Made by a program: the position numbers and the translations under genes
Source of the DNA: a virus
Reading direction: 5' to 3' (one strand)
IMG/VR virus record: IMGVR_UViG_3300045988_100479
Span: 1 to 32,831 of that record
DNA: 32,831 nt
The notes under the pieces: generated by a model
The model's database searches: none
Seen by the model: only the letters and a program-made list of their open reading frames with translations
What the model was told of the DNA's origin: nothing
In this document: in pieces, positions 1 through 32,831 of the stretch
How positions within the stretch are numbered: position 1 is the stretch's first letter
Layout of the letters: each line of letters opens with the position of its first letter

Positions 1-55
1 TCACTGTGCGCACTTTTGTGCTCCAACAATTTCAATTATAGGCAAGAAGTTTCAA
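1..55. repeat. Terminal direct repeat copy 1 (identical to 32777..32831); likely k=55 circular-assembly overlap
   Basis: Exact 55-nt identity between the window start and end was read directly from the sequence. Confidence 0.9.
6..21. promoter_or_regulatory. Operator-like palindromes GTGCGCAC (6..13) and GCAC-N4-GTGC (10..21) in the cro/cI switch region
   Basis: Overlapping dyad symmetries between the divergent promoters. The same sequence recurs at 32782..32797 because of the terminal repeat. Confidence 0.4.
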
Positions 56-62
56 ATTGCAA
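35..62 (-). promoter_or_regulatory. Candidate early promoter for cro-like gene: -35 TTGCAA (57..62), 16-bp spacer, -10 TATAAT (35..40) on minus strand
   Basis: Sigma70-like hexamers with correct spacing upstream of the cro-like gene. The gene continues across the circular junction; its RBS AAGGGGGTGAG is at 32760..32770. Confidence 0.45.
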
Positions 63-16981: not shown

Positions 16982-18676
16982 TTATATGACCTGGACCGTG
17001 AAGTCAGGCATTTGATTGAAAACAACGTCCTGTTGGAGCAAATATACCGCGTTTATCAGGGCAACAACCATATCGACCTTGCCCTTGCTCCGCTTCTTGT
17101 GGACGTACATGTTGCGGTTCGTGTCATAAGAGCAGCGGGCGTTCTGGAAGTTGATTTCGAGCAACTTGTTGTCTGTGTATTCGAACTCGCCGCAAAGAAT
17201 CTTCTCCTTGAGCAACTTCGTCGGCGGATGGAGCACGCTCGAATGCTGCCTGATTTCGACGGTGTTGTAGCCCGCTCCTTCCAGCTTCTGCGCGGTGCTG
17301 AGAGCGTTCCAGCGGTCGTAGCCGATTGCCTGGACCTGCACGCCGTACTTTTCCTCGATGCCGAGGATGAAGTCCTCGACAACCTTGTAATCAATTACAC
17401 GGTCACCGCAGGCGACGCACTTCCCGTCCCTGACGAACTCGTTGTAGTCGATTTTCTCGTATGCGTTCTTCTCGTTGATGCGGCCCTCTGGCACGAAGGC
17501 GAAAACATCGGCGAGGATGTTGCCGTCATCATCGGCGGCGACCATAGCGACCGCCGTGTTGTCGTTCGTCTCCGAAAGGTCCAGCCCAAGATACACGACG
17601 CGCCCGCGCCAGTCGATGTTCGCAACCTTGCACGCCTGCACGTCGGCAACGTCGATGAAAGTCTCCGTGCCCTGTCCCTGATAGATGATGTTGCAGTGCT
17701 TCGTTAAAAAGTTCTCGCGTGCCGATTCGACCGCGATTGCGTAGGCCCGCTTCTTCTTCAAGTCCTCCCAAATTTCGGGAATCTCCAAGCTGACGGGGTT
17801 GGACTGGCGCATGACCAAATCGTCCGTCATCCAGTCCTTCGTATCGTCTGGCTCGTAGAGCAAGGCGAACAGCGTGTCATCCTCGGCGATGCCGTCCAGA
17901 ACCTTCTTGGCGTATGCCACCTCATCCTCGAATGGGTTGTCAATCGTCGGGTACTTGGTCGAGATGATGAAGCCGAGCTTGTTGAGGATGTTGAGCTGGC
18001 CCGACTTCATGGCTTCGACGGCGTAGCTCGTGGGAAGCGCACCGACCTCGTCCGCGCAGAAGGCGCTTGGAAGTCGGCCATCCATTCGCGAGGTCGAATA
18101 GCTCAGAGGGACGTATGTCGAACTCTTAGGCCTGAACGTGATGCAGTCGCGGAGAATCTTGAAGCGCTTGTCTCCCTTGTACTCGTACACAAGCGGGGAC
18201 GAGCGCAGCGTCTGCGATATGGCTTCGCGAATCTGCCTAGACAACGCCCCGTCTGGCGCGACCGAGAAGAATTCCGCGAATCTCGGCTCTGTCAGCATGA
18301 GGATGATGAAGATGGTTGCCACCGTGTACGTCTTGAAGTTCTTGCGGGCGATTTCCAGCAACCCGATTTCGTAGCGCCGCTTCTCAGGATTGTCGCGGTA
18401 GACGGTACACAGAACAGCCGTGTAGAGCAGCCATTGGTAGCCCGTCGTGCATTCGTAGAGCGTCTGCCCAGCCTTCAGGCCCTTCGGCATTATGAGCAGC
18501 TTCAAGATTGACTCGACCTGGCGAATCTTCTCTTCGCTGACGAAGAACTTTTCACTCTTGCCGTCGCAAACGTCCATCCAAAGGCGCATCTGCTTTTTTA
18601 CGTAGCGCGGTGTGGTGTCCGCGTCTATCGCAAGCTCGCAGTACTCATATCCCCTATTCCTCGCCATCGCTGTCAC
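16982..18676 (-). CDS. terL: Terminase large subunit
   Basis: 564 aa with ATPase and nuclease halves typical of the Terminase_1 family. The listed start is GTG. An alternative ATG lies at 18667 (MARNRGYEY). Confidence 0.9.
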   Translation of the reverse strand: MTAMARNRGYEYCELAIDADTTPRYVKKQMRLWMDVCDGKSEKFFVSEEKIRQVESILKLLIMPKGLKAGQTLYECTTGYQWLLYTAVLCTVYRDNPEKRRYEIGLLEIARKNFKTYTVATIFIILMLTEPRFAEFFSVAPDGALSRQIREAISQTLRSSPLVYEYKGDKRFKILRDCITFRPKSSTYVPLSYSTSRMDGRLPSAFCADEVGALPTSYAVEAMKSGQLNILNKLGFIISTKYPTIDNPFEDEVAYAKKVLDGIAEDDTLFALLYEPDDTKDWMTDDLVMRQSNPVSLEIPEIWEDLKKKRAYAIAVESARENFLTKHCNIIYQGQGTETFIDVADVQACKVANIDWRGRVVYLGLDLSETNDNTAVAMVAADDDGNILADVFAFVPEGRINEKNAYEKIDYNEFVRDGKCVACGDRVIDYKVVEDFILGIEEKYGVQVQAIGYDRWNALSTAQKLEGAGYNTVEIRQHSSVLHPPTKLLKEKILCGEFEYTDNKLLEINFQNARCSYDTNRNMYVHKKRSKGKVDMVVALINAVYLLQQDVVFNQMPDFTVQVI

Positions 18677-21070: not shown

Positions 21071-22036
21071 CTACACCTTCAGTGCGCCGGACGAGTCGGA
21101 GGCCACGCCATACTGCATCTCGCCGCTGTCGCCGAAGGCATACCACTTGCCGCCGATGCTCTGCACGTCAGCCGCGTGCATCGCTCCCGTCTTTGGGTCC
21201 ATGTAGTACCACTCCCCGCCGTCGTTCACCCAGCCGGTGGCCATCGCGCCGGAATCGGTGAGGTAGTACCACTTGCCGCCGACCTTCTGCCATCCGGTCA
21301 GCATCCAGCCGTCGGCGTCGAAGAGGTACCACTTGCCGCCGATATGCTCCCAGCCGCCCCTGGTATAGCTGCCGTCAGCTTGCCTGTACCACCAACGGCC
21401 ATCCTGCTGAATCCAGCCGGTCGGCTGGCCGCTTGCCGCGCCCACGTAGCTCGCCCAACCGTCGGCGTCCATATAGGCCTTGTCGAGGTCCAGGTTCCCG
21501 GAGTATCCGTCGAGCCTGCCGTGGCTGGAGTACTGGCGAATGGCGCAGTCGTAGGCCCCCTCGTTCCAAGGGCTGTCCTGGTAGCCTGTGGCGTCGTTGT
21601 TGGCGTACTGCGCGACCCATGCGCCGCACTCGAGGGCCTGGGCAACGTCCCACGGGAAGGCGCTGGCCGAAGCGTAGATGAGCGGCTTGACTCCAGTCCT
21701 GTCGATGACCCTCTGGACCAGCTCCCTGAGGTAGTCGGTGTTGCCCCACGCGGCGTTCTGCATGCTCTCCCAGTCGATGCACGGAAGGCCCACGCCGAAG
21801 TAGTTGGCGCAGTTGTCCACGAAGAAGTCGGCCTCCGCCGTGGCCCCAGCCCCGTTCACGTAATGGTAGAAGCCGAACGGCTTGCCCAGGGCGATTGCCT
21901 GCTGGACGTGAGGGTCGCAGGCGGCCGAGACGTAGCCCACGCCCTGCGTCGCCTTGATGATTGCAAAGTCACACGGAACCTGCGCGAGGTCTAGGTCCTC
22001 CTGCCATCCGCTGATGTCGATTCCCTGCATCGTCAT
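21071..22036 (-). CDS. Endolysin: GH25 muramidase with C-terminal cell-wall-binding (choline-binding-like) repeats
   Basis: N-terminal GIDISGWQ...IIKATQG is the GH25 signature. The C-terminus has more than 5 repeats of GW..(D)GGKWYY. Confidence 0.9.
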   Translation of the reverse strand: MTMQGIDISGWQEDLDLAQVPCDFAIIKATQGVGYVSAACDPHVQQAIALGKPFGFYHYVNGAGATAEADFFVDNCANYFGVGLPCIDWESMQNAAWGNTDYLRELVQRVIDRTGVKPLIYASASAFPWDVAQALECGAWVAQYANNDATGYQDSPWNEGAYDCAIRQYSSHGRLDGYSGNLDLDKAYMDADGWASYVGAASGQPTGWIQQDGRWWYRQADGSYTRGGWEHIGGKWYLFDADGWMLTGWQKVGGKWYYLTDSGAMATGWVNDGGEWYYMDPKTGAMHAADVQSIGGKWYAFGDSGEMQYGVASDSSGALKV

Positions 22037-22263
22037 GCCTCATCAGTCCCTTCTGGTACCTGCTTAGACGTTGCCGCGCTCACTCCAATGAGCGCACCGA
22101 TGAGAACACCGGCCGCGTTGAGCGTGAGCACGATTGCGTCGGCGTTCGGAATTCCCCACGCCGGGAATACCGCGCCGATGAAAGTCGCGACTGCCGGGCA
22201 TGCGATAAGCCCGAGCCACTTCAACACGTGGTACAGCTTGTCATTGATGATGTAGTCTTTCAT
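22033..22263 (-). CDS. Holin
   Basis: 76 aa with two predicted transmembrane helices and a charged C-terminus. Overlaps the endolysin start (ATGA). Confidence 0.7.
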   Translation of the reverse strand: MKDYIINDKLYHVLKWLGLIACPAVATFIGAVFPAWGIPNADAIVLTLNAAGVLIGALIGVSAATSKQVPEGTDEA

Positions 22264-22275
22264 CTTTCAATCCTC

Positions 22276-22698
22276 CTAATCGTCAATCGTCGGCAGCGCC
22301 ATCATCTCGTCGTGAAGCGTCGTGGCGATGCCGTTTCCTCCCAGACTGTGATAGCTCTGATAGGTGCGCTCCATGACTTCCTTGTCCAACGTCGAAGCGT
22401 GGCCGTCGCGCACTGCCTGGTGATGGGTTCGCATGAGCTCGCTCCGGAGCAGCGCCCGCAAGGCCGACTTGAAAAGCTCGTTCTCCTCGGCCGCCTTCTC
22501 CTTCTCGACGCGGCGGTTCGAAAGCATCACGCCCAGAAGGGCGACGACTGCCGCGACCGAGTAGATTGCGAACTGCGAATCGAGTTCAGTATTTGACACG
22601 GCCGTTGCCGTCGCTGCCAGCGTGCAGGGGATGCACACCCACAGAAGCTTTTCCCAGAATCCCTGCACTGCCGCCCTTTTCCGATTGGTCTTTTGCAC
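22276..22698 (-). CDS. Membrane protein of the lysis cassette (second holin/antiholin-like?)
   Basis: Two N-terminal hydrophobic helices and a soluble C-terminal domain. The listed start is GTG. A TATAAT lies at 22706..22711 on the minus strand and an intrinsic terminator lies just upstream. Confidence 0.4.
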   Translation of the reverse strand: MQKTNRKRAAVQGFWEKLLWVCIPCTLAATATAVSNTELDSQFAIYSVAAVVALLGVMLSNRRVEKEKAAEENELFKSALRALLRSELMRTHHQAVRDGHASTLDKEVMERTYQSYHSLGGNGIATTLHDEMMALPTIDD

Positions 22699-22743
22699 TC
22701 CCTTGATTATACGGCACCATGAGCGGGAATTGCGGGAACGATG

Positions 22744-22770
22744 AAAAGGGCCACCGTCTTCTGGTGGCCC
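22744..22770 (-). terminator. Intrinsic terminator (GGGCCACC/GGTGGCCC stem) after gene 22794..22988
   Basis: 8-bp GC stem, 7-nt loop, followed by UUUU on the minus strand. Confidence 0.7.
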
Positions 22771-22793
22771 CGCTGCCGTTCATCGCCTGAGTC

Positions 22794-22988
22794 TTAGAGA
22801 ATCTCCAACGCGATGTCGCAAGCCCTCTCGTATGTGATGCCGCAGAACTCCGCGAATGCCTCGGTCGCGTTCCTTGCGGCTTCCTTGGTGCCGTTCTCGA
22901 ACTTGTAATCGTAGACGGCTTCAACCATCTTGCCGTAGAGCTGGAGCTTCTTCGCGAACTTCTTGGTGTCCTTATTTGTGTCCTTCAT
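22794..22988 (-). CDS. Hypothetical small protein (cassette gene)
   Basis: 64 aa. ATG follows RBS AAAGGACC and the conserved cassette 5' element. Its own terminator is downstream. Confidence 0.5.
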   Translation of the reverse strand: MKDTNKDTKKFAKKLQLYGKMVEAVYDYKFENGTKEAARNATEAFAEFCGITYERACDIALEIL

Positions 22989-22995
22989 TGTTGGT

Positions 22996-23102
22996 CCTTT
23001 CTCTCTCCCTCACTTGCTGATAGCAGTATACACCTATACGCACGTTACCACGGCGAGAACCTGAGGTTTCTCAAAATGAAAAAGCCCCCATTTCTGGGGG
23101 CC
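22996..23102 (-). promoter_or_regulatory. Cassette element A: conserved 5' leader/promoter-like block (core AGTATACAC 23025..23033 with TGCT-N3-AGCA dyad) plus the upstream gene's terminator (23078..23102)
   Basis: About 85% identical over roughly 107 bp to element C (26428..26535). Confidence 0.55.
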
Positions 23103-23126
23103 TTCTGGCTGCATCTCCTTTGGCTT

Positions 23127-23354
23127 TTACAGCTCTTCTGCCTTTAGGAGCTTGACTCCGAGGAAGTCGAGTTCGTAGTTGCACACCGTCTCCCTGTCGA
23201 GCCTCTTGATGTAGCAGAGGAAGTTGTGGTACCTGCGGCCATCGACGGTTCCGCCGTCCGCCACGCACACGAGCCCGTCCTCTGGCTGGCAGCCGATGTC
23301 GTATGGGCGCAGGCGCATTCCGTACTTGCACAGGTAAAACACGTTGATTTCCAT
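23127..23354 (-). CDS. Hypothetical small protein (cassette gene)
   Basis: 75 aa from ATG 23354 (MEINVFYL...). The listed ORF is over-extended through conserved element B. Confidence 0.5.
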   Translation of the reverse strand: MEINVFYLCKYGMRLRPYDIGCQPEDGLVCVADGGTVDGRRYHNFLCYIKRLDRETVCNYELDFLGVKLLKAEEL

Positions 23355-23481
23355 TGCCTTTCCTTTCTCTCTCTTTCCGCTCTTGCTATAGCAAAGTATA
23401 CACCCATAACGTACAGGCGCACACGAGAATCTGAAAAATCTTCCGCACGAAAAGGGGCACCGCCTCAATCTGCGATGCCCC
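23355..23481 (-). promoter_or_regulatory. Cassette element B: core AGTATACAC (23395..23403), perfect 12-bp palindrome TTGCTATAGCAA (23383..23394), GAGAATCTGAAAAA box, and terminator hairpin (23450..23481)
   Basis: Shares the motif with elements A, C, D and E. The hairpin GGGGCACCGC/GCGATGCCCC is followed by UUUU on the minus strand. Confidence 0.55.
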
Positions 23482-23486
23482 ATGCT

Positions 23487-23669
23487 CTACTCTGCCGAGC
23501 GCTCCAGGTCCGCCCGGATTAGCCCCTTGATGTAGCCCTGCTTGCTCGGAACGCTGTCGAGCTTCTCCAGGACGTCCCCGTCGGTGCGGCGGTTCAACTT
23601 CAGATGAACCTGCCGCGTGTTCGCCTTGTCGTACTTGTAACCGGCCTTGAGCTGCGCTTCAGTAGCCAT
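23487..23669 (-). CDS. Ribbon-helix-helix (CopG/Arc/MetJ-like) DNA-binding protein
   Basis: 60 aa. TRQVHLKLNRRTDGDVLEKLDSVPSKQGYIKGLIRADL fits the beta-strand/helix/helix RHH pattern. Confidence 0.5.
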   Translation of the reverse strand: MATEAQLKAGYKYDKANTRQVHLKLNRRTDGDVLEKLDSVPSKQGYIKGLIRADLERSAE

Positions 23670-23670
23670 A

Positions 23671-23949
23671 TCAAATCACCTCCACCTTCTCCAGGGCGCC
23701 CGACAGCCACATGGCCATCGCCGCCGTTATCGTCACCATCACCGCTCGGTCGAACTCCGCATCTGTCACGCACCTTTGGTCGCGCCGCTTGGCATCCGGC
23801 GTGGCCCCTACTGGCTGGACCATAGCAGTCCTGATGGTGTCCAGGGACCTCGCGAGCGCGTCCTTGTCAGCCTGAGAGAATCCGCCGCGCCACCCCGTGA
23901 AGGTGAGCATCGCCTCGAGCGTCGGGTTTAGACTAAATTTCTGGAACAT
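23671..23949 (-). CDS. Hypothetical protein
   Basis: 92 aa from ATG 23949; the listed ORF is over-extended. Confidence 0.45.
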   Translation of the reverse strand: MFQKFSLNPTLEAMLTFTGWRGGFSQADKDALARSLDTIRTAMVQPVGATPDAKRRDQRCVTDAEFDRAVMVTITAAMAMWLSGALEKVEVI

Positions 23950-24361
23950 CGCAGCCACCCCCCTCGATGACCTCCGCGCCGCACTCAGGGCAGTAGCTTG
24001 GCGGGAAGTCGGAGTCATTGACGCACTCGTCTCCGCATGACAGCACCCACAGCTGGCCCGCCTCCTCGCACCCGTACGAGCCGCAGTGCGTCTTGTGCTC
24101 GACCACGTAGCACGTCGGTCGGTCTATCAGGTCGGCAAGACGGTTGTGAAGCTCCTCGTAGTCTCCAGGGTGCATGTGCTCTGCTGGGAAGCATCCGAGA
24201 ACGGCATTGTGAATCTGGCTGTAATCGGCCTCGTCTCCAATGCTCGCGTCTATGAAGAGTCCTTCCATCACCCACTCTTTGCTGGCTGCGTATGTGTCAG
24301 AAGGCAGCTCTCGTAGCTTCGCCGCCACCTCTCTGCGCTTCTTGTCGCTAGTGAATGCCAT
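23933..24361 (-). CDS. Hypothetical protein with C-terminal zinc-ribbon (CPECG...CD)
   Basis: 142 aa from ATG 24361 (MAFTSDKK...); Cys pairs at the C-terminus. Confidence 0.5.
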   Translation of the reverse strand: MAFTSDKKRREVAAKLRELPSDTYAASKEWVMEGLFIDASIGDEADYSQIHNAVLGCFPAEHMHPGDYEELHNRLADLIDRPTCYVVEHKTHCGSYGCEEAGQLWVLSCGDECVNDSDFPPSYCPECGAEVIEGGGCDVPEI

Positions 24362-24534
24362 TAGAAGAAGCCTCCCCACTTGAGAATCGCGAAGTTGACC
24401 GCGACCCCAACCATGGTCATCCAGACGTTGTATGGCCCCTGCTCCTCGCCGTGGTGGACGGCGCTCAGCGTGATGTTGATTAGGTACATGACCAGCACCA
24501 CCATCTGCGGGACCCCGATGCTCAACTCGACCAT
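24361..24534 (-). CDS. Small two-helix membrane protein (57 aa), not in the ORF table
   Basis: Translation is MVELSIGVPQMVVLVMYLINITLSAVHHGEEQGPYNVWMTMVGVAVNFAILKWGGFF. Its ATG overlaps the upstream stop (TGATG) and its stop overlaps the downstream start (TAATG), indicating translational coupling. Confidence 0.4.
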   Translation of the reverse strand: MVELSIGVPQMVVLVMYLINITLSAVHHGEEQGPYNVWMTMVGVAVNFAILKWGGFF

Positions 24535-25019
24535 CACCGACCGCCTTCCTCTTCGTCCACCAGCAGGAACCCGACCTCCGCCAGCCTCTTGCGCAGACCG
24601 TCAAGCTCCGCCTCGGCTCGCTCGGCCCTCTCGCGCAGCTCCGCCACCTCGGCAACCGCCTCGTCGCGCTCGCGCGTGAGCCTTTCAACCTTTTCGTTGA
24701 CCTCGGCTGCCAGCGCGTCCTTGCCTCGCGGCGCGATTAGGTCTGCCAGCACCTCGGGGAGCGTGGAGTCCTGGTTCTTGCCCCACCATGGGTTGAGGGC
24801 GGTCACGACCTGCGCGAGGGGTGTCTCGCAGCCCTTGCGCCCAGGCTTCGAGCAGGCCAGCAGCTCCGCCACGACCTCGTGCCTAACCTTGTCCCCAGGG
24901 TCGCGCAGCTCTCCCCTGGCCCTCGGCTTGCAGGTCATGCCGTTCGGCACGGCCCGGCCAAGGCCAATGGCCGACGGCAGCTTGTCCTGGCTTATCCTCA
25001 TCTTCACGAACTCGCTCAT
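24534..25019 (-). CDS. Hypothetical protein with C-terminal coiled-coil
   Basis: 161 aa from ATG 25019 (MSEFVKMRIS...). It forms an ATGA overlap with the upstream gene. Confidence 0.5.
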   Translation of the reverse strand: MSEFVKMRISQDKLPSAIGLGRAVPNGMTCKPRARGELRDPGDKVRHEVVAELLACSKPGRKGCETPLAQVVTALNPWWGKNQDSTLPEVLADLIAPRGKDALAAEVNEKVERLTRERDEAVAEVAELRERAERAEAELDGLRKRLAEVGFLLVDEEEGGR

Positions 25020-25378
25020 CGTGTGACCATCCTCTCCGCATCGGAGCTCCAAGGCGTGCGCGGCCGCGATGGGGTGTGGGCGATGCATGCCGGGCTGACG
25101 TGGGCGTCGCATCCCTCGGTGAAGGCGTTCACCTTCGCCGCGCCTCCTGCGTACAGAGTGGTTGACCTGACCGTGAATTCCATGCCGTCCTCCACGTCCC
25201 ACACCGTGTCGCCCACGTGGATGGGCGCCCCGTCCGCGTCCTTGGGCAGCTCCACCATCTCCGCGTCGATGCGGTCGGCTAGGACGCGCAGCTCGTCACA
25301 TGCTCCCAAGTCACATCCTTCCCAGTCAGCTTCGGATTCGTCACACCACTTGCGCAACTCGTCGCTAATCTTCGTCAT
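25016..25378 (-). CDS. Hypothetical protein
   Basis: 120 aa from ATG 25378 (MTKISDELRKW...). Confidence 0.4.
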   Translation of the reverse strand: MTKISDELRKWCDESEADWEGCDLGACDELRVLADRIDAEMVELPKDADGAPIHVGDTVWDVEDGMEFTVRSTTLYAGGAAKVNAFTEGCDAHVSPACIAHTPSRPRTPWSSDAERMVTR

Positions 25379-25613
25379 CTTCGACCACCTTCCTGACCAT
25401 CCTCTTCGCCATGTGCCAGCACTCCCTGGCCTTGCTGAGGTCCTTCCACTCGTCGTCCTTGAGTCCGGCCCTGTCGAGGTACTTGAGCGCCGAGCCTGCC
25501 GCGAAGTAGATTGCCATTGCCGGAGATATGGCGTACATCGCATCGATGCACTCGATGCCCTCACTGGCGTAGTGGCTTGGGTGCTCGACCCCGTCCATCG
25601 AGTCGTCTGACAT
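25365..25613 (-). CDS. Hypothetical protein (possibly DUF3310-like)
   Basis: 82 aa. The PSHYASEGIECIDAMY pattern resembles small phage DUF3310 proteins. This is a tentative recognition. Confidence 0.45.
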   Translation of the reverse strand: MSDDSMDGVEHPSHYASEGIECIDAMYAISPAMAIYFAAGSALKYLDRAGLKDDEWKDLSKARECWHMAKRMVRKVVEDDED

Positions 25614-25627
25614 CGCCCCTCACCCCC

Positions 25628-25747
25628 TCAGCGTCCGTTGTTCTTCGTCGCACCGACTAGGAATGCGACGCACACCACGAGAAGCATGATTACGTCCCCG
25701 ATGTTCGTCTGGGGGCTTAACGGGTGTGGGATAAGTGCTTGAAGCAT
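25628..25747 (-). CDS. Possible small hydrophobic peptide (39 aa), not in the ORF table
   Basis: Translation is MLQALIPHPLSPQTNIGDVIMLLVVCVAFLVGATKNNGR. It is preceded by AAAGGAAACGAAG and a hairpin at 25773..25794. Confidence 0.2.
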   Translation of the reverse strand: MLQALIPHPLSPQTNIGDVIMLLVVCVAFLVGATKNNGR

Positions 25748-25807
25748 CTTCGTTTCCTTTCTCTTGTTTGGGGGAGCGGTTTCGCCCCCGCTCCGTGGGC
25801 CGCTGGC

Positions 25808-25987
25808 TTACCTGTTCTCGTTGACCGCCGCGTCGTAGCCTTCTGCGTATGCCTTGACCATGGAGGGCGTGCGGTAGACGAGGTTTGCGAGGGAGCCACG
25901 CTCGACTGCCCTATCTACGCCATCACGGTTGACGATGTATGCGCCCATCCTGTGACCCCTGTTGTATGCCTTCTCGATGTTGCTCAT
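25808..25987 (-). CDS. Hypothetical small protein (cassette gene)
   Basis: 59 aa from ATG 25987 (MSNIEKAYNRG...). The upstream 5' leader is about 170 nt and carries element E. Confidence 0.45.
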   Translation of the reverse strand: MSNIEKAYNRGHRMGAYIVNRDGVDRAVERGSLANLVYRTPSMVKAYAEGYDAAVNENR

Positions 25988-26184
25988 TGCCGTTTCCTTT
26001 CTCTCTCTGAGGAATCGCATTTACGGCCTGTGTCTCGATGGTATATGCCGTCTGACCTTTCCTCTTCGTATATTAGTATACACTAACAACGCCCGAGATG
26101 GAAGCGCTTTCGTAAGAGATTCGCGCGGTAATTTATTCCGTGGGAAATTCTTCCGCACAAGAAAAAGGCCCCATCTCTGGGGCC
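25988..26184 (-). promoter_or_regulatory. Cassette element E: long leader with core AGTATACAC (26075..26083) and terminator hairpin GGCCCCA/TGGGGCC (26162..26184)
   Basis: Shares the AGTATACAC core and the CTTCCGCACxAAAAAGG box with element B. Confidence 0.5.
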
Positions 26185-26215
26185 CTGTCCTACCTTACGA
26201 AATTTTTCGGTTCCC

Positions 26216-26419
26216 TTACGCTGCTGCGTGCTTGCTCCACAGGTCTGAATAGATTTTGTCGCTTTCTTCTTCCGAGACGCGCCCGTCGATAATCTCGAAC
26301 CCACAGTCACGGAAAATCTCGCCTTCTGCCGTGTTCCAAGTCTTGTCAATTGCGTTGATGATTGCGCTGGTGCTAAGGCCGTTCATGAGCTTCATGAAGT
26401 TGTCGCGGCTTGCCTTCAT
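26216..26419 (-). CDS. Hypothetical small acidic protein (cassette gene)
   Basis: 67 aa; ATG 26419 directly downstream of element C. Confidence 0.5.
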   Translation of the reverse strand: MKASRDNFMKLMNGLSTSAIINAIDKTWNTAEGEIFRDCGFEIIDGRVSEEESDKIYSDLWSKHAAA

Positions 26420-26427
26420 TTTGGTTT

Positions 26428-26535
26428 CCTTTCTCTCTCCCTCACTTGCTGATAGCAGTATACACCTATGGCGACCTTATGCGCGCGGGAACCTGAGGTT
26501 TTTCAAAATAAAAAAGGCCCCCATTTCTGGGGGCC
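26428..26535 (-). promoter_or_regulatory. Cassette element C: near-identical copy of element A (core AGTATACAC 26457..26465) plus terminator GGCCCCCA/TGGGGGCC (26505..26535)
   Basis: The first 42 bp and the last roughly 45 bp are identical or nearly identical to element A, separated by a 20-bp variable segment. Confidence 0.55.
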
Positions 26536-26540
26536 TCGCC

Positions 26541-26726
26541 CTACCTTACGAAGAGCGCCTTGTAGCCCTCAATCGCATCTAGAAGGAACCACGTTGCCAC
26601 GTCGTATTCCTCCTTGTCGGATTCCGTCATGTCTCCGACCTTTCCACTCCAGTGGAACCGTGAGCCTTCGTAAAGGAGAACCTCATCGTCGGGCTGGAAG
26701 TCAGTGTCGAAGATTGTATTTGCCAT
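26541..26726 (-). CDS. Hypothetical small acidic protein (cassette gene)
   Basis: 61 aa, Asp/Glu-rich; ATG 26726 downstream of element D. Confidence 0.5.
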   Translation of the reverse strand: MANTIFDTDFQPDDEVLLYEGSRFHWSGKVGDMTESDKEEYDVATWFLLDAIEGYKALFVR

Positions 26727-26815
26727 TGTCGTTCCTTTCTCTCATTGCCTTACTTGCTGTAGCAAAGTATACACCTATGGCGAGCGGTTGCAGGCGAGAA
26801 TCTGAAAAACATTGC
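26727..26815 (-). promoter_or_regulatory. Cassette element D: core AGTATACAC (26766..26774), dyad TTGCTGTAGCAA (26754..26765), GAGAATCTGAAAAA box
   Basis: Same subtype as element B. Confidence 0.5.
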
Positions 26816-26844
26816 CCGATATATGAGCGCGGCCTATTTACTAT

Positions 26845-26894
26845 TTTCGTGACCTCACGAAATATGAGCGTGGCCCCCAGCATGGTGAGGGCCA
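26845..26894 (-). promoter_or_regulatory. Hairpin GTGGCCC-N12-GGGCCAC (26869..26894) and palindrome TTCGTGA-CC-TCACGAA (26845..26860) downstream of the sigma-like gene
   Basis: Direct dyad symmetries; a possible terminator/operator ahead of the first cassette. Confidence 0.35.
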
Positions 26895-26931
26895 CAGGCG
26901 AGAGAAAGGTGCGGCGCTCGATGGGCCGCGG

Positions 26932-27237
26932 CTAGATTGTACCACGGAGGAACCTGCGCAGTTGCTTCGCTGGCGAAGTCCTCTCGTAATGCATCCGTCT
27001 CGCTATCGTCTCCCAGCTCTTCCCCTCCAGGAACCGCATGACGGCGATTGCCCTGACTCTCGCGTCTGGGATTGCAGCGATGAAGGCCATGACCTCCAGC
27101 CTTGCGGCTTCGACCGCCCGTGCCTGCCTGTCAATCGCCCTCAGAACGTCCTCGCTGCTCTCTTCGGCTGCGACCCTGCGGAGCGCGTCCAGCTCCGCCT
27201 TGAGATGCACGGCCTGCGAAAGCTCGCGCTCGGTCAC
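26932..27237 (-). CDS. Sigma-70 region-4-like HTH transcriptional regulator (ArpU/RinA/DUF1492-like phage activator)
   Basis: The C-terminal segment VRAIAVMRFLEGKSWETIARRMHYERTSPAKQLRRFL resembles sigma region 4. A probable GTG start at 27237 overlaps the dnaC-like stop (GTGA). The listed ORF is over-extended, and its 27324 start is also GTG. Confidence 0.5.
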   Translation of the reverse strand: MTERELSQAVHLKAELDALRRVAAEESSEDVLRAIDRQARAVEAARLEVMAFIAAIPDARVRAIAVMRFLEGKSWETIARRMHYERTSPAKQLRRFLRGTI

Positions 27238-28073
27238 AGCCCCAGAAGCTCCTTGGCTGCTGCTGTCCGTGCTGCGTAGTCCGAACGTCGGCGGTCTTGT
27301 CCGTTGAAGGCCACGGGGACGCACATGTCCATGATGCGGCTGTAGATTCGCTGCTCGCCGAGTCCGTCAGCGCTCATGAGGTCGCGTGGGTTGATGTTCG
27401 TCGTCACTATCAGCGGCAGCTTGGAGCGGTAGCGGGCGTCGATGACTGCCGTCACCTGCTCCGTCATGTACTCGGTGCGGCGCTCTGTGGCGAAGTCATC
27501 GATTATGAGCAGGTCAAACTTCTGCAGACTGTCGATGTACTCCTGCTTCCCCGAGAACCCGTTCTGCAGCTTGTTGACTATTCGCTGGAAGTTGGTCATG
27601 AGACACGGCGTTCCGCTCTCAATGAGCGCGTTAGCTATGCACGCGGCCGCGAAGCTCTTCCCGCTGCCGACGTTTCCGTAGAGCATGAGGCCCGTGCCGT
27701 TCTCCAGCATCTGCGGGAACTTCTCGACGTACCGCCTCATGGCCGCCATGGTCTTGGCGTCCTTGCCGTCATCGTTGGCGAAGGTCCACTCCCTCATCTC
27801 CGAGTCGGGGAAGCCGGTGCGGCGCATCCTGTCCACGCGTTGCATCCTCTCGCGCGTGCGCTCGTCCTCCTTCCTGCGCTCCTCATCCTCGACCTCGCAC
27901 TTGCACATACAGTAGGGCTTGATTACCCTGCCGCCGAACTCCACCTCGCACTGCTTGGGAGTGTGGCACTTTCCGCAGTAGAGCAGGCCGTCCTTGATGT
28001 AGTCGCCCGCCTGCGGCTTCGCGTTCATGTCTGCTGCCTTTGCCAGTCCCTCGATTATTCCATTCATGTTCAT
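27234..28073 (-). CDS. DnaC/IstB-like AAA+ helicase loader
   Basis: Walker A LYGNVGSGKSF, Walker B DLLIIDDFATE, and an N-terminal Cys-rich segment. Confidence 0.85.
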   Translation of the reverse strand: MNMNGIIEGLAKAADMNAKPQAGDYIKDGLLYCGKCHTPKQCEVEFGGRVIKPYCMCKCEVEDEERRKEDERTRERMQRVDRMRRTGFPDSEMREWTFANDDGKDAKTMAAMRRYVEKFPQMLENGTGLMLYGNVGSGKSFAAACIANALIESGTPCLMTNFQRIVNKLQNGFSGKQEYIDSLQKFDLLIIDDFATERRTEYMTEQVTAVIDARYRSKLPLIVTTNINPRDLMSADGLGEQRIYSRIMDMCVPVAFNGQDRRRSDYAARTAAAKELLGL

Positions 28074-28088
28074 GATTTTCCTTCCTCT

Positions 28089-28835
28089 CTATCGCGTTGT
28101 CGGCGCGTACTTTCCAAGTCCGAGAACCTTGTCTAGCTCCTCGTCTCCGCTGCTCTGGTAGTAGTAATCTGCATCTACCTTCTTGCTGAATCCGCTTGAT
28201 GTTTCACGTGAAACGCCGACTTTGTTTCCGTCCCTGTCACGTCGCGCCCAGTTCCGAATCGTTGCTAGGTGGTTCTTGTAGCTCTTCCCGCTTGATGCCA
28301 TGTAGGAGCTGAGCCTTTCGATTCTCTCTTCCCAGTCCGTGGGAAACTCAGTTTTGAGCTTCTGCACGTCTGAATCTGTGAGAAGAACGTTGGAGTACTC
28401 GCCGAACTTGTGGCGCGTCTCTATCTTCTCTCTAGTGTTTTTCTCTAGCTTATCTACATCTATAGTATGGGTGCTCATTTTGGGTACACCCCCCATACCC
28501 ATTTTGGGTACGCCCCCCTGTTCATTTTGGGTACACCACTGCGCATTTTGGGTACCCCGTACCGCCCTGTAGTCCACGAGCAGCACACCAGCCTTCACGT
28601 GCTCGCGTCTCTCAATGAGTCCGTCCGCACATAGCGTGTCCAGGTTCCGTGATACAGTGCTCTTCGACACTTGGCACCACGCTGCCAAATATGAGCGCGA
28701 CCCCGTGAACCACGAGTCTCCATCCTGCGAGAATCCGTAGATTACCGCGTAGATTATCAACGCGTTCCCGCTTAGGTGCAGCTCGTTCACCATGAATGCC
28801 TGAATGTTCACGTATGAGTCGGATTTTACTTCCAT
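28089..28835 (-). CDS. Replication initiator (winged-helix N-terminal domain, DnaD-like C-terminus) containing origin iterons
   Basis: ATG 28835 has RBS AGGGGAG. The HTH region is YLAAWCQVSKSTVSRNLDTLCADGLIER. Four iterons lie inside the coding region. The listed GTG start at 28868 falls inside a 13-bp-stem hairpin. Confidence 0.65.
   Translation of the reverse strand: MEVKSDSYVNIQAFMVNELHLSGNALIIYAVIYGFSQDGDSWFTGSRSYLAAWCQVSKSTVSRNLDTLCADGLIERREHVKAGVLLVDYRAVRGTQNAQWCTQNEQGGVPKMGMGGVPKMSTHTIDVDKLEKNTREKIETRHKFGEYSNVLLTDSDVQKLKTEFPTDWEERIERLSSYMASSGKSYKNHLATIRNWARRDRDGNKVGVSRETSSGFSKKVDADYYYQSSGDEELDKVLGLGKYAPTTR
28201..28214. promoter_or_regulatory. Perfect 14-bp palindrome GTTTCACGTGAAAC, copy 3 of 3, inside the initiator gene 3' end and about 130 bp upstream of dnaC-like
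   Basis: Exact identity with copies at 11075 and 15173; it encodes VSRET. Confidence 0.6.
28476..28555. repeat. Iteron array: four direct repeats of CATTTTGGGTAC at 28476, 28500, 28523 and 28544 (spacing 24, 23, 21 bp); putative replication origin
   Basis: Read directly from the sequence. The repeats are embedded in the initiator ORF and encode VPKM or TQN depending on phase. Confidence 0.7.
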
Positions 28836-32776: not shown

Positions 32777-32831
32777 TCACTGTGCGCACTTTTGTGCTCC
32801 AACAATTTCAATTATAGGCAAGAAGTTTCAA
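32777..32831. repeat. Terminal direct repeat copy 2 (identical to 1..55)
   Basis: Exact 55-nt identity with 1..55. Confidence 0.9.

Follow-up and report, generated by a model that had tools for sequence, protein, structure and literature searches.

Repeated terminator-promoter blocks in front of variable small genes in a temperate siphophage of the human gut

Why should one small viral genome carry the same short upstream sequence several times, each time in front of a different small gene? The question is raised by IMG/VR record IMGVR_UViG_3300045988_100479, whose 32,831 nucleotides (the window) contain a cluster of such blocks between the gene for a 101-aa regulator (Reg) and the lysis and packaging genes. 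An earlier note on this DNA proposed a dedicated regulon of accessory cassettes, driven by a phage sigma-like factor or repressed through a dyad. The interpretation that we favour, with a probability of about 0.6, is that the region between Reg and the lysis/packaging genes is a hyperplastic accessory region. It would consist of swappable cassettes resembling the promoter-early stem-loops (PeSLs) of T4-type phages and morons, with block promoters read by the host. The finding is a lineage-specific instance of a known architecture, the composite terminator-promoter cassette of PeSL or moron kind, and the idea of a dedicated regulon is unsupported. Features below are on the minus strand unless stated otherwise.

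The repetition of the blocks is genuine and well in excess of chance. Their core, GTGTATACT (AGTATACAC on the plus strand), occurs five times in 32.8 kb (at 23025, 23395, 26075, 26457 and 26766), always on the minus strand and always within 23025-26774. Only 0.04 copies are expected, and five were reached in 0 of 100 shuffles. As the earlier note had it, every copy lies upstream of one small open reading frame (ORF). The five ORFs start at 22988, 23354, 25987, 26419 and 26726 and encode 64, 75, 59, 67 and 61 aa, respectively, and a GA-rich ribosome binding site (RBS), AGAGAAAGGAA, precedes all of them. We named the blocks A to E, counting from the regulator gene onward, and the first genes behind them gA, gB, gC1, gD and gE. 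In a repeat search, blocks A and D were 81% identical over 57 nt and blocks B and E 81% over 111 nt.

Blocks A, B, D and E share one layout: a terminator, an A/T tract, a promoter-like site, a short GA-rich leader with the RBS, one gene of 61-75 aa and again a terminator. Read from 5' to 3', a hairpin with its T tract is followed by an A/T-rich stretch, a heptamer (TTCYCGC in A, B and E, TTCTCGT in D), a variable hexamer at the -35 position, a 16-nt spacer and TATACT, which is preceded by ATAGGTG (ATGGGTG in block D). After these come a short dyad, to which TATACT contributes its last bases, the string CAGCAAG, a purine-rich leader with AGAGAAAGGAA, and ATG. In block A (26727..26815) these elements are TTCTCGC (26794-26800), the -35-like CTGCAA (26788-26793), the 16-nt spacer, the -10 hexamer TATACT (26766-26771) within the core (26766-26774), the dyad TTGCT-AC-AGCAA (26754-26765) and the RBS (26732-26743). 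Block B (26420..26537) has a terminator (26514-26537) with T tract, TTCCCGC (26485-26491), TATACT (26457-26462), the dyad TGCT-ATC-AGCA (26447-26457) and the RBS. Block D (23355..23481) has a terminator (23454-23481), the core (23395-23403), a dyad in the form of the perfect 12-bp palindrome TTGCTATAGCAA (23383-23394), as had been noticed before, and the RBS. Block E (22989..23104) has a terminator (23084-23104), TTCTCGC (23053-23059), the core (23025-23033), and a dyad and RBS as in block B.

Hairpins with T tracts follow the genes that end at 26541, 26216, 23487, 23127 and 22794, with folding energies of -18.6 to -24 kcal/mol, the one after gE (22744..22770, -18.6 kcal/mol) being followed by TTTT. 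Against shuffled controls the terminator hairpins of the window have z-scores of -2.9 to -4.3. Block A is the exception to the layout: the hairpin upstream of it is that of the regulator gene (26869..26896, -19.7 kcal/mol), which ends in GCTCATATTTCG and has no T tract, so that read-through is likely. A directly repeated 18-mer (GGCCRCGCTCATATWTCG when read on the minus strand) is found at 26817-26834 and 26858-26875, 41 nt apart, in the interval from the regulator stop codon to block A; in the DnaD-like gene a similar sequence, CTCATATTTG, comes after a hairpin at 28696-28714.

Block C (25988..26186) is built differently. It has a terminator (26165-26186) and the core (26075-26083), no dyad, and a leader of about 90 nt (25988-26074) that ends in the RBS. 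It heads an operon of nine genes (23487..25987): gC1 (25808-25987, 59 aa), genes for a 39-aa membrane peptide, a DUF3310 protein (25365-25613) and five orphans, and finally gC9 (23487-23669), which encodes a conserved protein of 60 aa. The hairpin after gC1 (25773-25794) has no T tract, and eight more genes follow down to 23487. The array therefore consists of two cassettes, one nine-gene operon and two further cassettes. Repeated terminator-promoter-RBS-ORF units with accessory genes are thus present, as proposed earlier, but they are not five equivalent insulated cassettes; the terminator ascribed to every gene is found after five gene ends and not after gC1, and the inverted repeat ascribed to every block is missing from C.

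The blocks recur in relatives, for which we used 33 IMG/VR loci encoding a relative of Reg. In 27 loci (group 1) the regulator is 78-96% identical to Reg, and in six (group 2) about 55%. With a slightly relaxed core, 60 blocks were found in 28 genomes, all of them on the regulator strand and between the regulator gene and the lysis/packaging genes (phrog_4105/holin); a profile search of the 10 kb upstream of the regulator in relatives gave no block. Nearly every group-1 locus has 1 to 5 blocks by the block profile, and a terminator hairpin with T tract lies directly upstream of 35 of 54 distinct blocks. Thirty distinct blocks give the consensus ttttttattt.gAaaaattTccGattCtCgCtTGCaac-N9-TATAGGTGTATACT-N6-CAGCAAGtG.gggagagAgagaaaGGAA. 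It amounts to a TTGCAA -35-like hexamer, N16 and TATACT, with an A/T-rich tract, TTTTTTATTTTGAAAAA, upstream of box and -35. Group-2 blocks read ATAGGTGTATAGT; their upstream box, TTCGGCGTGTCG, lies nearer to the -10, and they have no -35-like hexamer. A first IMG/VR scan with the dyad pattern had returned mostly chance or unrelated matches, L007 and L009 being the only relatives among them.

The leader of block C is near-invariant (…ACGGCACATACCATCGAGAGACAGGCCGT…) in at least 17 relatives, including L015, L016, L019, L022-L030, L034, L038 and L045. It is better conserved than the adjoining genes, and the gene behind it differs between phages. A structured RNA in this leader was considered and set aside: 12 pairs are predicted (z = -1.5), the sequence shows almost no variation and one compensatory pair, and no Rfam family matched.

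What varies is the genes behind the blocks. Across the relatives the genes for DnaC, the regulator, gC9, phrog_4105, holin, lysin and HNH form the core, and the motif is conserved as a unit while the genes that follow it change. The first ORFs behind blocks fall into about 38 families in 34 genomes, mostly singletons, many of them acidic. In the window, gA (26541..26726) and gD (23127..23354; 57-72% identity) each occur in about half of the relatives and gB (26216..26419) in two of 33; gE (22794..22988) is absent from all 33, and most genes of the block C operon occur in few relatives or none. The same cargo is also found in different slots. gB lies after the regulator in L038 and after gC9 in L029, and gD lies after gC9 in the window, a relative of it standing after the regulator in L019. 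In comparisons of the window with its relatives, orthologous segments stop at 26413-26424, 26507-26513, 25978-25995, 23076-23083 and 22745-22771. These end points are the RBS/start codon or the terminator of a block, that is, block edges.

How would such a block be transcribed? Its predicted promoter, TTGCAA-N16-TATACT, most likely needs nothing but host RNA polymerase and would represent a 'house style' of the phage. The early lytic promoter (35..62), located between the divergent repressor and cro-like genes, reads TTGCAA (57-62), N16, TATAAT (35-40). At the same place relatives have TTGCAA-N17-(GGGTG)TATAGT, preceded by TATGGGTG, which agrees with the block sequence TATAGGTGTATACT at 12 of 14 positions. 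We regard the blocks as probable host-polymerase promoters because they are styled like the early promoter, which must fire before any phage protein exists. The same shared -35/-10 style and nearly identical 14-nt -10 region tell against a dedicated regulon driven by the sigma-like factor. A related sequence, GTGTATAAT, stands upstream of a phage tRNA-Trp gene in group 2 (about 70 nt upstream in L036). In L002, L005, L006 and L010, unrelated phage contigs of lower GC content from the same collection, TTGACA-N17-TATACT is preceded by AATAGGTG and followed by a GGAGG RBS; TAGGTGTATACT may be a recurrent promoter form among gut Firmicutes phages.

If the favoured interpretation is correct, each block would join the terminator of the upstream unit, an A/T-rich tract, a promoter of host sigma-A type with TATAGGTGTATACT, and a purine-rich leader of about 30 nt with a consensus Shine-Dalgarno (SD) sequence. 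Read by host RNA polymerase with no phage factor, it would drive one small gene of accessory function, or a short operon where block C is concerned, and the terminators would insulate the units and keep early/accessory transcription out of the late genes. The conserved blocks of about 60-110 nt would also supply the homology for recombination events that insert, delete or exchange cassettes, possibly with the help of a putative phage recombination module near 31.4-32.4 kb. Reg would act elsewhere, as an Ltr-type late activator of a promoter that we call F, through tandem 7-nt repeats. The cargo would serve early or middle accessory functions, possibly counter-defence.

Several points weigh against this interpretation. 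The host-type promoter is predicted from the phage's own early promoter, and recombination at the blocks is deduced from breakpoints. Three of the four dyad-type blocks of the window, B, D and E, have a poor -35 (GCGCAT, GTGCGC and CGTGGT). Group-2 blocks have a conserved TTCGGCGTGTCG box in place of a -35-like hexamer, which is the look expected of a factor-dependent promoter, and a generic sigma-70 scan of the window called none of the blocks. The GTG before TATACT abuts the hexamer and lies outside the canonical TGn register of an extended -10, and a host extended -10 was dropped as an account of it, as the register does not fit. In addition, all blocks lie downstream of the regulator gene, as would be expected of targets of the regulator.

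The architecture has counterparts. The regulatory logic, earlier said not to be obvious from known families, matches PeSLs, morons and the Ltr paradigm. Like the PeSLs of T4-type phages (Arbiol et al. 2010, PMC2839356; Comeau et al. 2014, PMC4122927), the blocks combine an upstream stop codon, an A/T tract, a putative host promoter of the sigma-70 kind, a terminator stem-loop, and the SD sequence and start of a downstream ORFan. Like PeSLs they also lie in a hyperplastic region in which indel or replacement junctions between close relatives fall inside the motif. Unlike PeSLs, they are carried by a temperate siphophage of about 33 kb, with a different host type (SD-using, about 57% GC, human gut), rather than by a T4-like myovirus, and there are 1-5 copies rather than about 50. 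Their stem-loop is always upstream of the promoter instead of between or over the hexamers, they include a conserved leader and a 14-nt invariant -10 region, and they are not homologous to PeSLs in sequence. A PeSL is also characterised by demonstrated activity of promoter and terminator and by mini-circles; in the blocks the promoter and terminator are predicted from sequence. In the sense in which morons are understood in PMC7067206, the cassettes resemble them as single accessory genes with their own promoter and terminator, present in some genomes, absent in close relatives and placed between conserved modules. gA, gB, gD and gE each have their own predicted promoter and terminator and are absent from some or all close relatives. 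Classical morons are unrelated insertions with their own signals, whereas here one shared block recurs in tandem units at one locus.

The regulator deserves separate attention, since the earlier note made it the driver of the array. Reg (26932..27237) is a basic protein of 101 aa (isoelectric point, pI, 10.3), encoded by the last conserved gene of the early/replication operon, before the late genes. It matches phrog_36 (E 2.4e-7) and phrog_248 (E 1.1e-4), families of phage transcription regulators/activators. Its similarity to sigma-70 region 4, noticed before, and to extracytoplasmic function (ECF) sigma factors is below threshold (Pfam Sigma70_r4_2, E 0.023, under the cutoff). Profile searches with Reg gave no match to ArpU, RinA or DUF1492, and PDB sequence searches nothing meaningful. 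The AlphaFold2 (AF2) model (predicted local distance difference test score, pLDDT, 90) has a long helical hairpin followed by a three-helix helix-turn-helix (HTH), which would form a C-terminal sigma-region-4-like domain. A Foldseek search with it gave nothing significant; among many weak local matches to sigma region 4 was that of sigma-E on -35 DNA, at 1.9 A over 40 residues.

Reg is a candidate late activator of the Ltr type. The Ltr superfamily (Quiles-Puchalt et al. 2013, PMC3753634) comprises small basic late activators of about 100-130 aa, namely RinA, ArpU, LtrA (Sigma70_r4), LtrB (DUF1492, about 100 aa) and LtrC, whose genes close the early transcript and which work through direct repeats of 7 nt located in the late promoter. 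Reg is likewise small and basic, with a sigma-region-4-like C terminus, and its gene stands at the end of the early operon and upstream of the lysis/packaging genes. Promoter F (22699..22743), with a poor -35 and tandem 7-nt direct repeats, would be the matching late promoter. It consists of TTCCCGC-AA-TTCCCGC (22723-22738), N11 and TATAAT (22706-22711) and lies directly upstream of the phrog_4105, holin, lysin, HNH and terminase genes. Each phage of either regulator group has exactly one TCCCGCAAWTCCC-N13-TATAAT. The differences from the Ltr paradigm are that Reg has no significant hidden Markov model (HMM) match to ArpU, RinA or DUF1492, that the repeats lie about 4 kb from the regulator gene, past the cassettes, instead of immediately distal to it, and that the lysis genes precede the terminase genes.

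In six of the 33 related contigs (L042-L047) the regulator gene is disrupted. L045 and L046 have a clean in-frame deletion of residues 22-95, by which the whole HTH is lost, and in L044 the 5' half of the gene is fused directly to a block. These contigs may be defective genomes or products of recombination at blocks.

Could the blocks nevertheless be targets of Reg? They would then form a middle/late regulon in which Reg docks at TTCYCGC (group 1) or TTCGGCGTGTCG (group 2) and assists or replaces sigma region 4, like MotA/AsiA. The middle promoters of T4 have a good -10 and a phage-specific box in place of the -35. The likeness to them, which applies to this explanation alone, is best in group-2 blocks, but no MotA/AsiA homologue was found, and most group-1 blocks keep the TTGCAA -35-like hexamer. 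The position of the blocks fits, since all 60 are downstream of the regulator gene, one nearly always within about 130 nt of its stop, and the 7-nt repeats bound by Ltr activators lie immediately beyond the activator gene. Blocks A, B and E each have one TTCYCGC at 22 nt upstream of TATACT, similar in sequence and in distance to the repeats of F, and several blocks, together with all those of group 2, lack a recognisable -35. However, the heptamer is common (the window has 26 copies where 15.9 are expected) and by itself not significant, so that we rejected it as a specific Reg box, and the box is only moderately conserved, varying even among blocks of one phage. The early promoter has the -35 and the 14-nt -10 region of the block, and blocks remain intact in variants that have lost the regulator HTH, though these are perhaps defective genomes. 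The HTH (…SWETIARRxHYERTSPAKxLRR…) is nearly identical in groups 1 and 2, whereas the block boxes of the two groups are unrelated in sequence and position. Because the HTH is nearly the same, F is conserved in both groups and the block boxes differ, F is more probably the target of Reg, through its predicted 7-nt repeat sites, and dependence of the blocks on Reg is unlikely. A bolder version, which we consider doubtful, would make the blocks a distinct temporal class, -35-less, with a 14-nt -10 region (TATAGGTGTATA[C/G]T) and a lineage-specific box read by Reg through sigma appropriation. A single protein would then switch on exchangeable counter-defence cassettes, the blocks doubling as recombination joints.

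The dyad at the transcription start (ACTTG(CT)..(AG)CAAGT) could instead be an operator for a phage repressor such as gC9, with a subset of cassettes switched off at some stage. A dyad of 4-7 bp over the -10/+1 region is found in 11 of 27 distinct blocks (about 40%), including four in the window; several of the 11 are unlikely in shuffles, and gC9 is a core gene nearly always directly followed by a block. In the other 16 blocks the stem is at chance level. The right arm stays CAGCAAG even where the left arm does not pair with it; the left arm is whatever follows TATACT, the -10 hexamer itself supplying three of its five bases, and no compensatory change is seen. With a start about 7 nt past the hexamer the left arm lies outside the RNA, so that the dyad would at most be a DNA-level operator in a subset of blocks; as a general conserved hairpin or operator it was discarded. 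The ribbon-helix-helix (RHH) fold once assigned to gC9 found no HMM or PDB support either: searches of Pfam, NCBIfam and PDB with the single sequence or a profile gave no match, and the name is one depositor's unconfirmed label on an 82%-identical homologue. Repression through the dyad is thus improbable. Least credible, and very much so, is a lambda PR'/qut-like arrangement of constitutive promoters whose short transcripts would end at the next terminator until a phage antiterminator modifies the polymerase at the conserved sequence near the promoter and lets it pass the cassette terminators to reach the late genes. The combination of a strong promoter, a unit of about 200 nt and a strong terminator directly upstream of the late genes would suit it, as would the high conservation of the initially transcribed CAGCAAGTGAGGG and of the block C leader. 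Against it, family searches of the window proteins detected no Q-like or N-like protein, every relative has the separate conserved promoter F upstream of the late genes, and the number of blocks ranges from 1 to 5 per phage.

What might the cassettes deliver? gA is a strongly acidic orphan of 61 aa (pI 4.1, net charge -9) whose homologues are confined to this phage family. Its AF2 model has a pLDDT of 69, and Foldseek found no fold match. gB, an orphan of 67 aa that had also been called strongly acidic, is mildly so (pI 4.75, net -4), and the other three first-gene proteins have pI values of 5.3, 6.2 and 9.2. gA, gB, gC1 and gE, the last an orphan of 64 aa, had no above-cutoff match in Pfam, PHROG or NCBIfam. 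gC1 weakly resembles ribosome modulation factor, below the cutoffs (NCBIfam NF011162, E 9e-4; Pfam RMF, E 0.011). gD (75 aa) contains a DarA_C domain (PF18789, E 9.5e-8, 32.9 bits against a cutoff of 27). DarA is an anti-restriction protein of phage P1 with obscure biochemistry. Among the first genes of the window cassettes this was the only Acr, Ocr, Ard or anti-restriction homology or fold found, so that the suggested DNA-mimic or anti-defence role gained one family match, in gD, and no fold match for gA. An anti-defence function for some cassettes is a reasonable guess, and the domain of gD a weak hint of counter-defence. Across the roughly 38 families, Pfam matches were limited to pentapeptide repeat plus DUF5758, DUF7659, DarA_C, DUF3310 and MazG. 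The first group-2 cassette (L036, 10891-11724; also in L039) encodes a pentapeptide-repeat protein of 277 aa fused to DUF5758. Pentapeptide-repeat proteins are DNA mimics, and this one is a candidate for an anti-defence or anti-gyrase-type function.

The genome around the cassettes is that of a temperate siphophage with an HK97-type capsid, from human-gut metagenomes. The window is a complete circular assembly of about 32.8 kb, since its first 55 bases (1-55) return exactly, as a direct repeat, in its last 55 (32777-32831). The genetic switch straddles the circle junction, with the XRE-type repressor (202-510) and a large serine recombinase (514-2016) on the plus strand and the cro-like gene on the minus strand; operator-like repeats GTGAGCACA/GTGCGCAC lie in the switch across the window ends. 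From the cro-like gene onward all other genes run in one direction on the minus strand: recombination, SSB and dUTPase genes, DnaD-like protein (28868-28089), DnaC/IstB-like ATPase (28073-27234), Reg and the cassette region. Past the cassettes follow phrog_4105, a Dp-1 holin, a GH25/choline-binding lysin, HNH, a ParB-methylase, TerL and the head and tail genes. The HNH/methylase/terminase genes (16982-18676) are preceded by the lysis cassette (21071-22698), which encodes the phrog_4105 membrane protein, the Dp-1 holin and the GH25 lysin with its choline-binding repeats; such cassettes are usually placed after the tail genes. In group 2 a tRNA-Trp (CCA) gene stands just downstream of the regulator gene (L036, 10637-10709; L037, 10838-10909; L039, 10457-10528); the window has no tRNA, and a scan of all of it with Rfam gave no family above threshold.

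TerL shares 72% identity with its counterpart in Lactobacillus delbrueckii phages. Among GenBank phages, megablast with 12.8 kb gave no relative at the DNA level and tblastn with the regulator protein no match. Relatives number in the hundreds in human-gut metagenomes, all as free contigs of about 32-36 kb. Several hundred related contigs, from a metagenome scan with the integrase and cluster look-ups, included none above about 36 kb, with bacterial flanks or as an integrated copy. Scans of genome contigs with the regulator protein and with the block pattern were both empty. No species-representative genome carries the phage, despite the encoded repressor and serine integrase.

Were the blocks part of a regulon of Reg, this would be moderately interesting. 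If instead the cassette interpretation is true, modular shuffling of the PeSL type reaches beyond the T4-like myoviruses of Gram-negative bacteria, and a shared block serves as the recombination joint also in a widespread family of small temperate gut siphophages. Promoter F with its tandem 7-nt repeats would, if its proposed role is true, make a late activator of the Ltr type cleanly testable in a gut phage that is uncultured. The block tag (TATAGGTGTATACT ... CAGCAAG ... GAGAAAGGAA) locates accessory-gene slots in hundreds of metagenomic genomes and yields about 40 families of small orphans, several of them very acidic, that can be screened for anti-defence or host-takeover activity.

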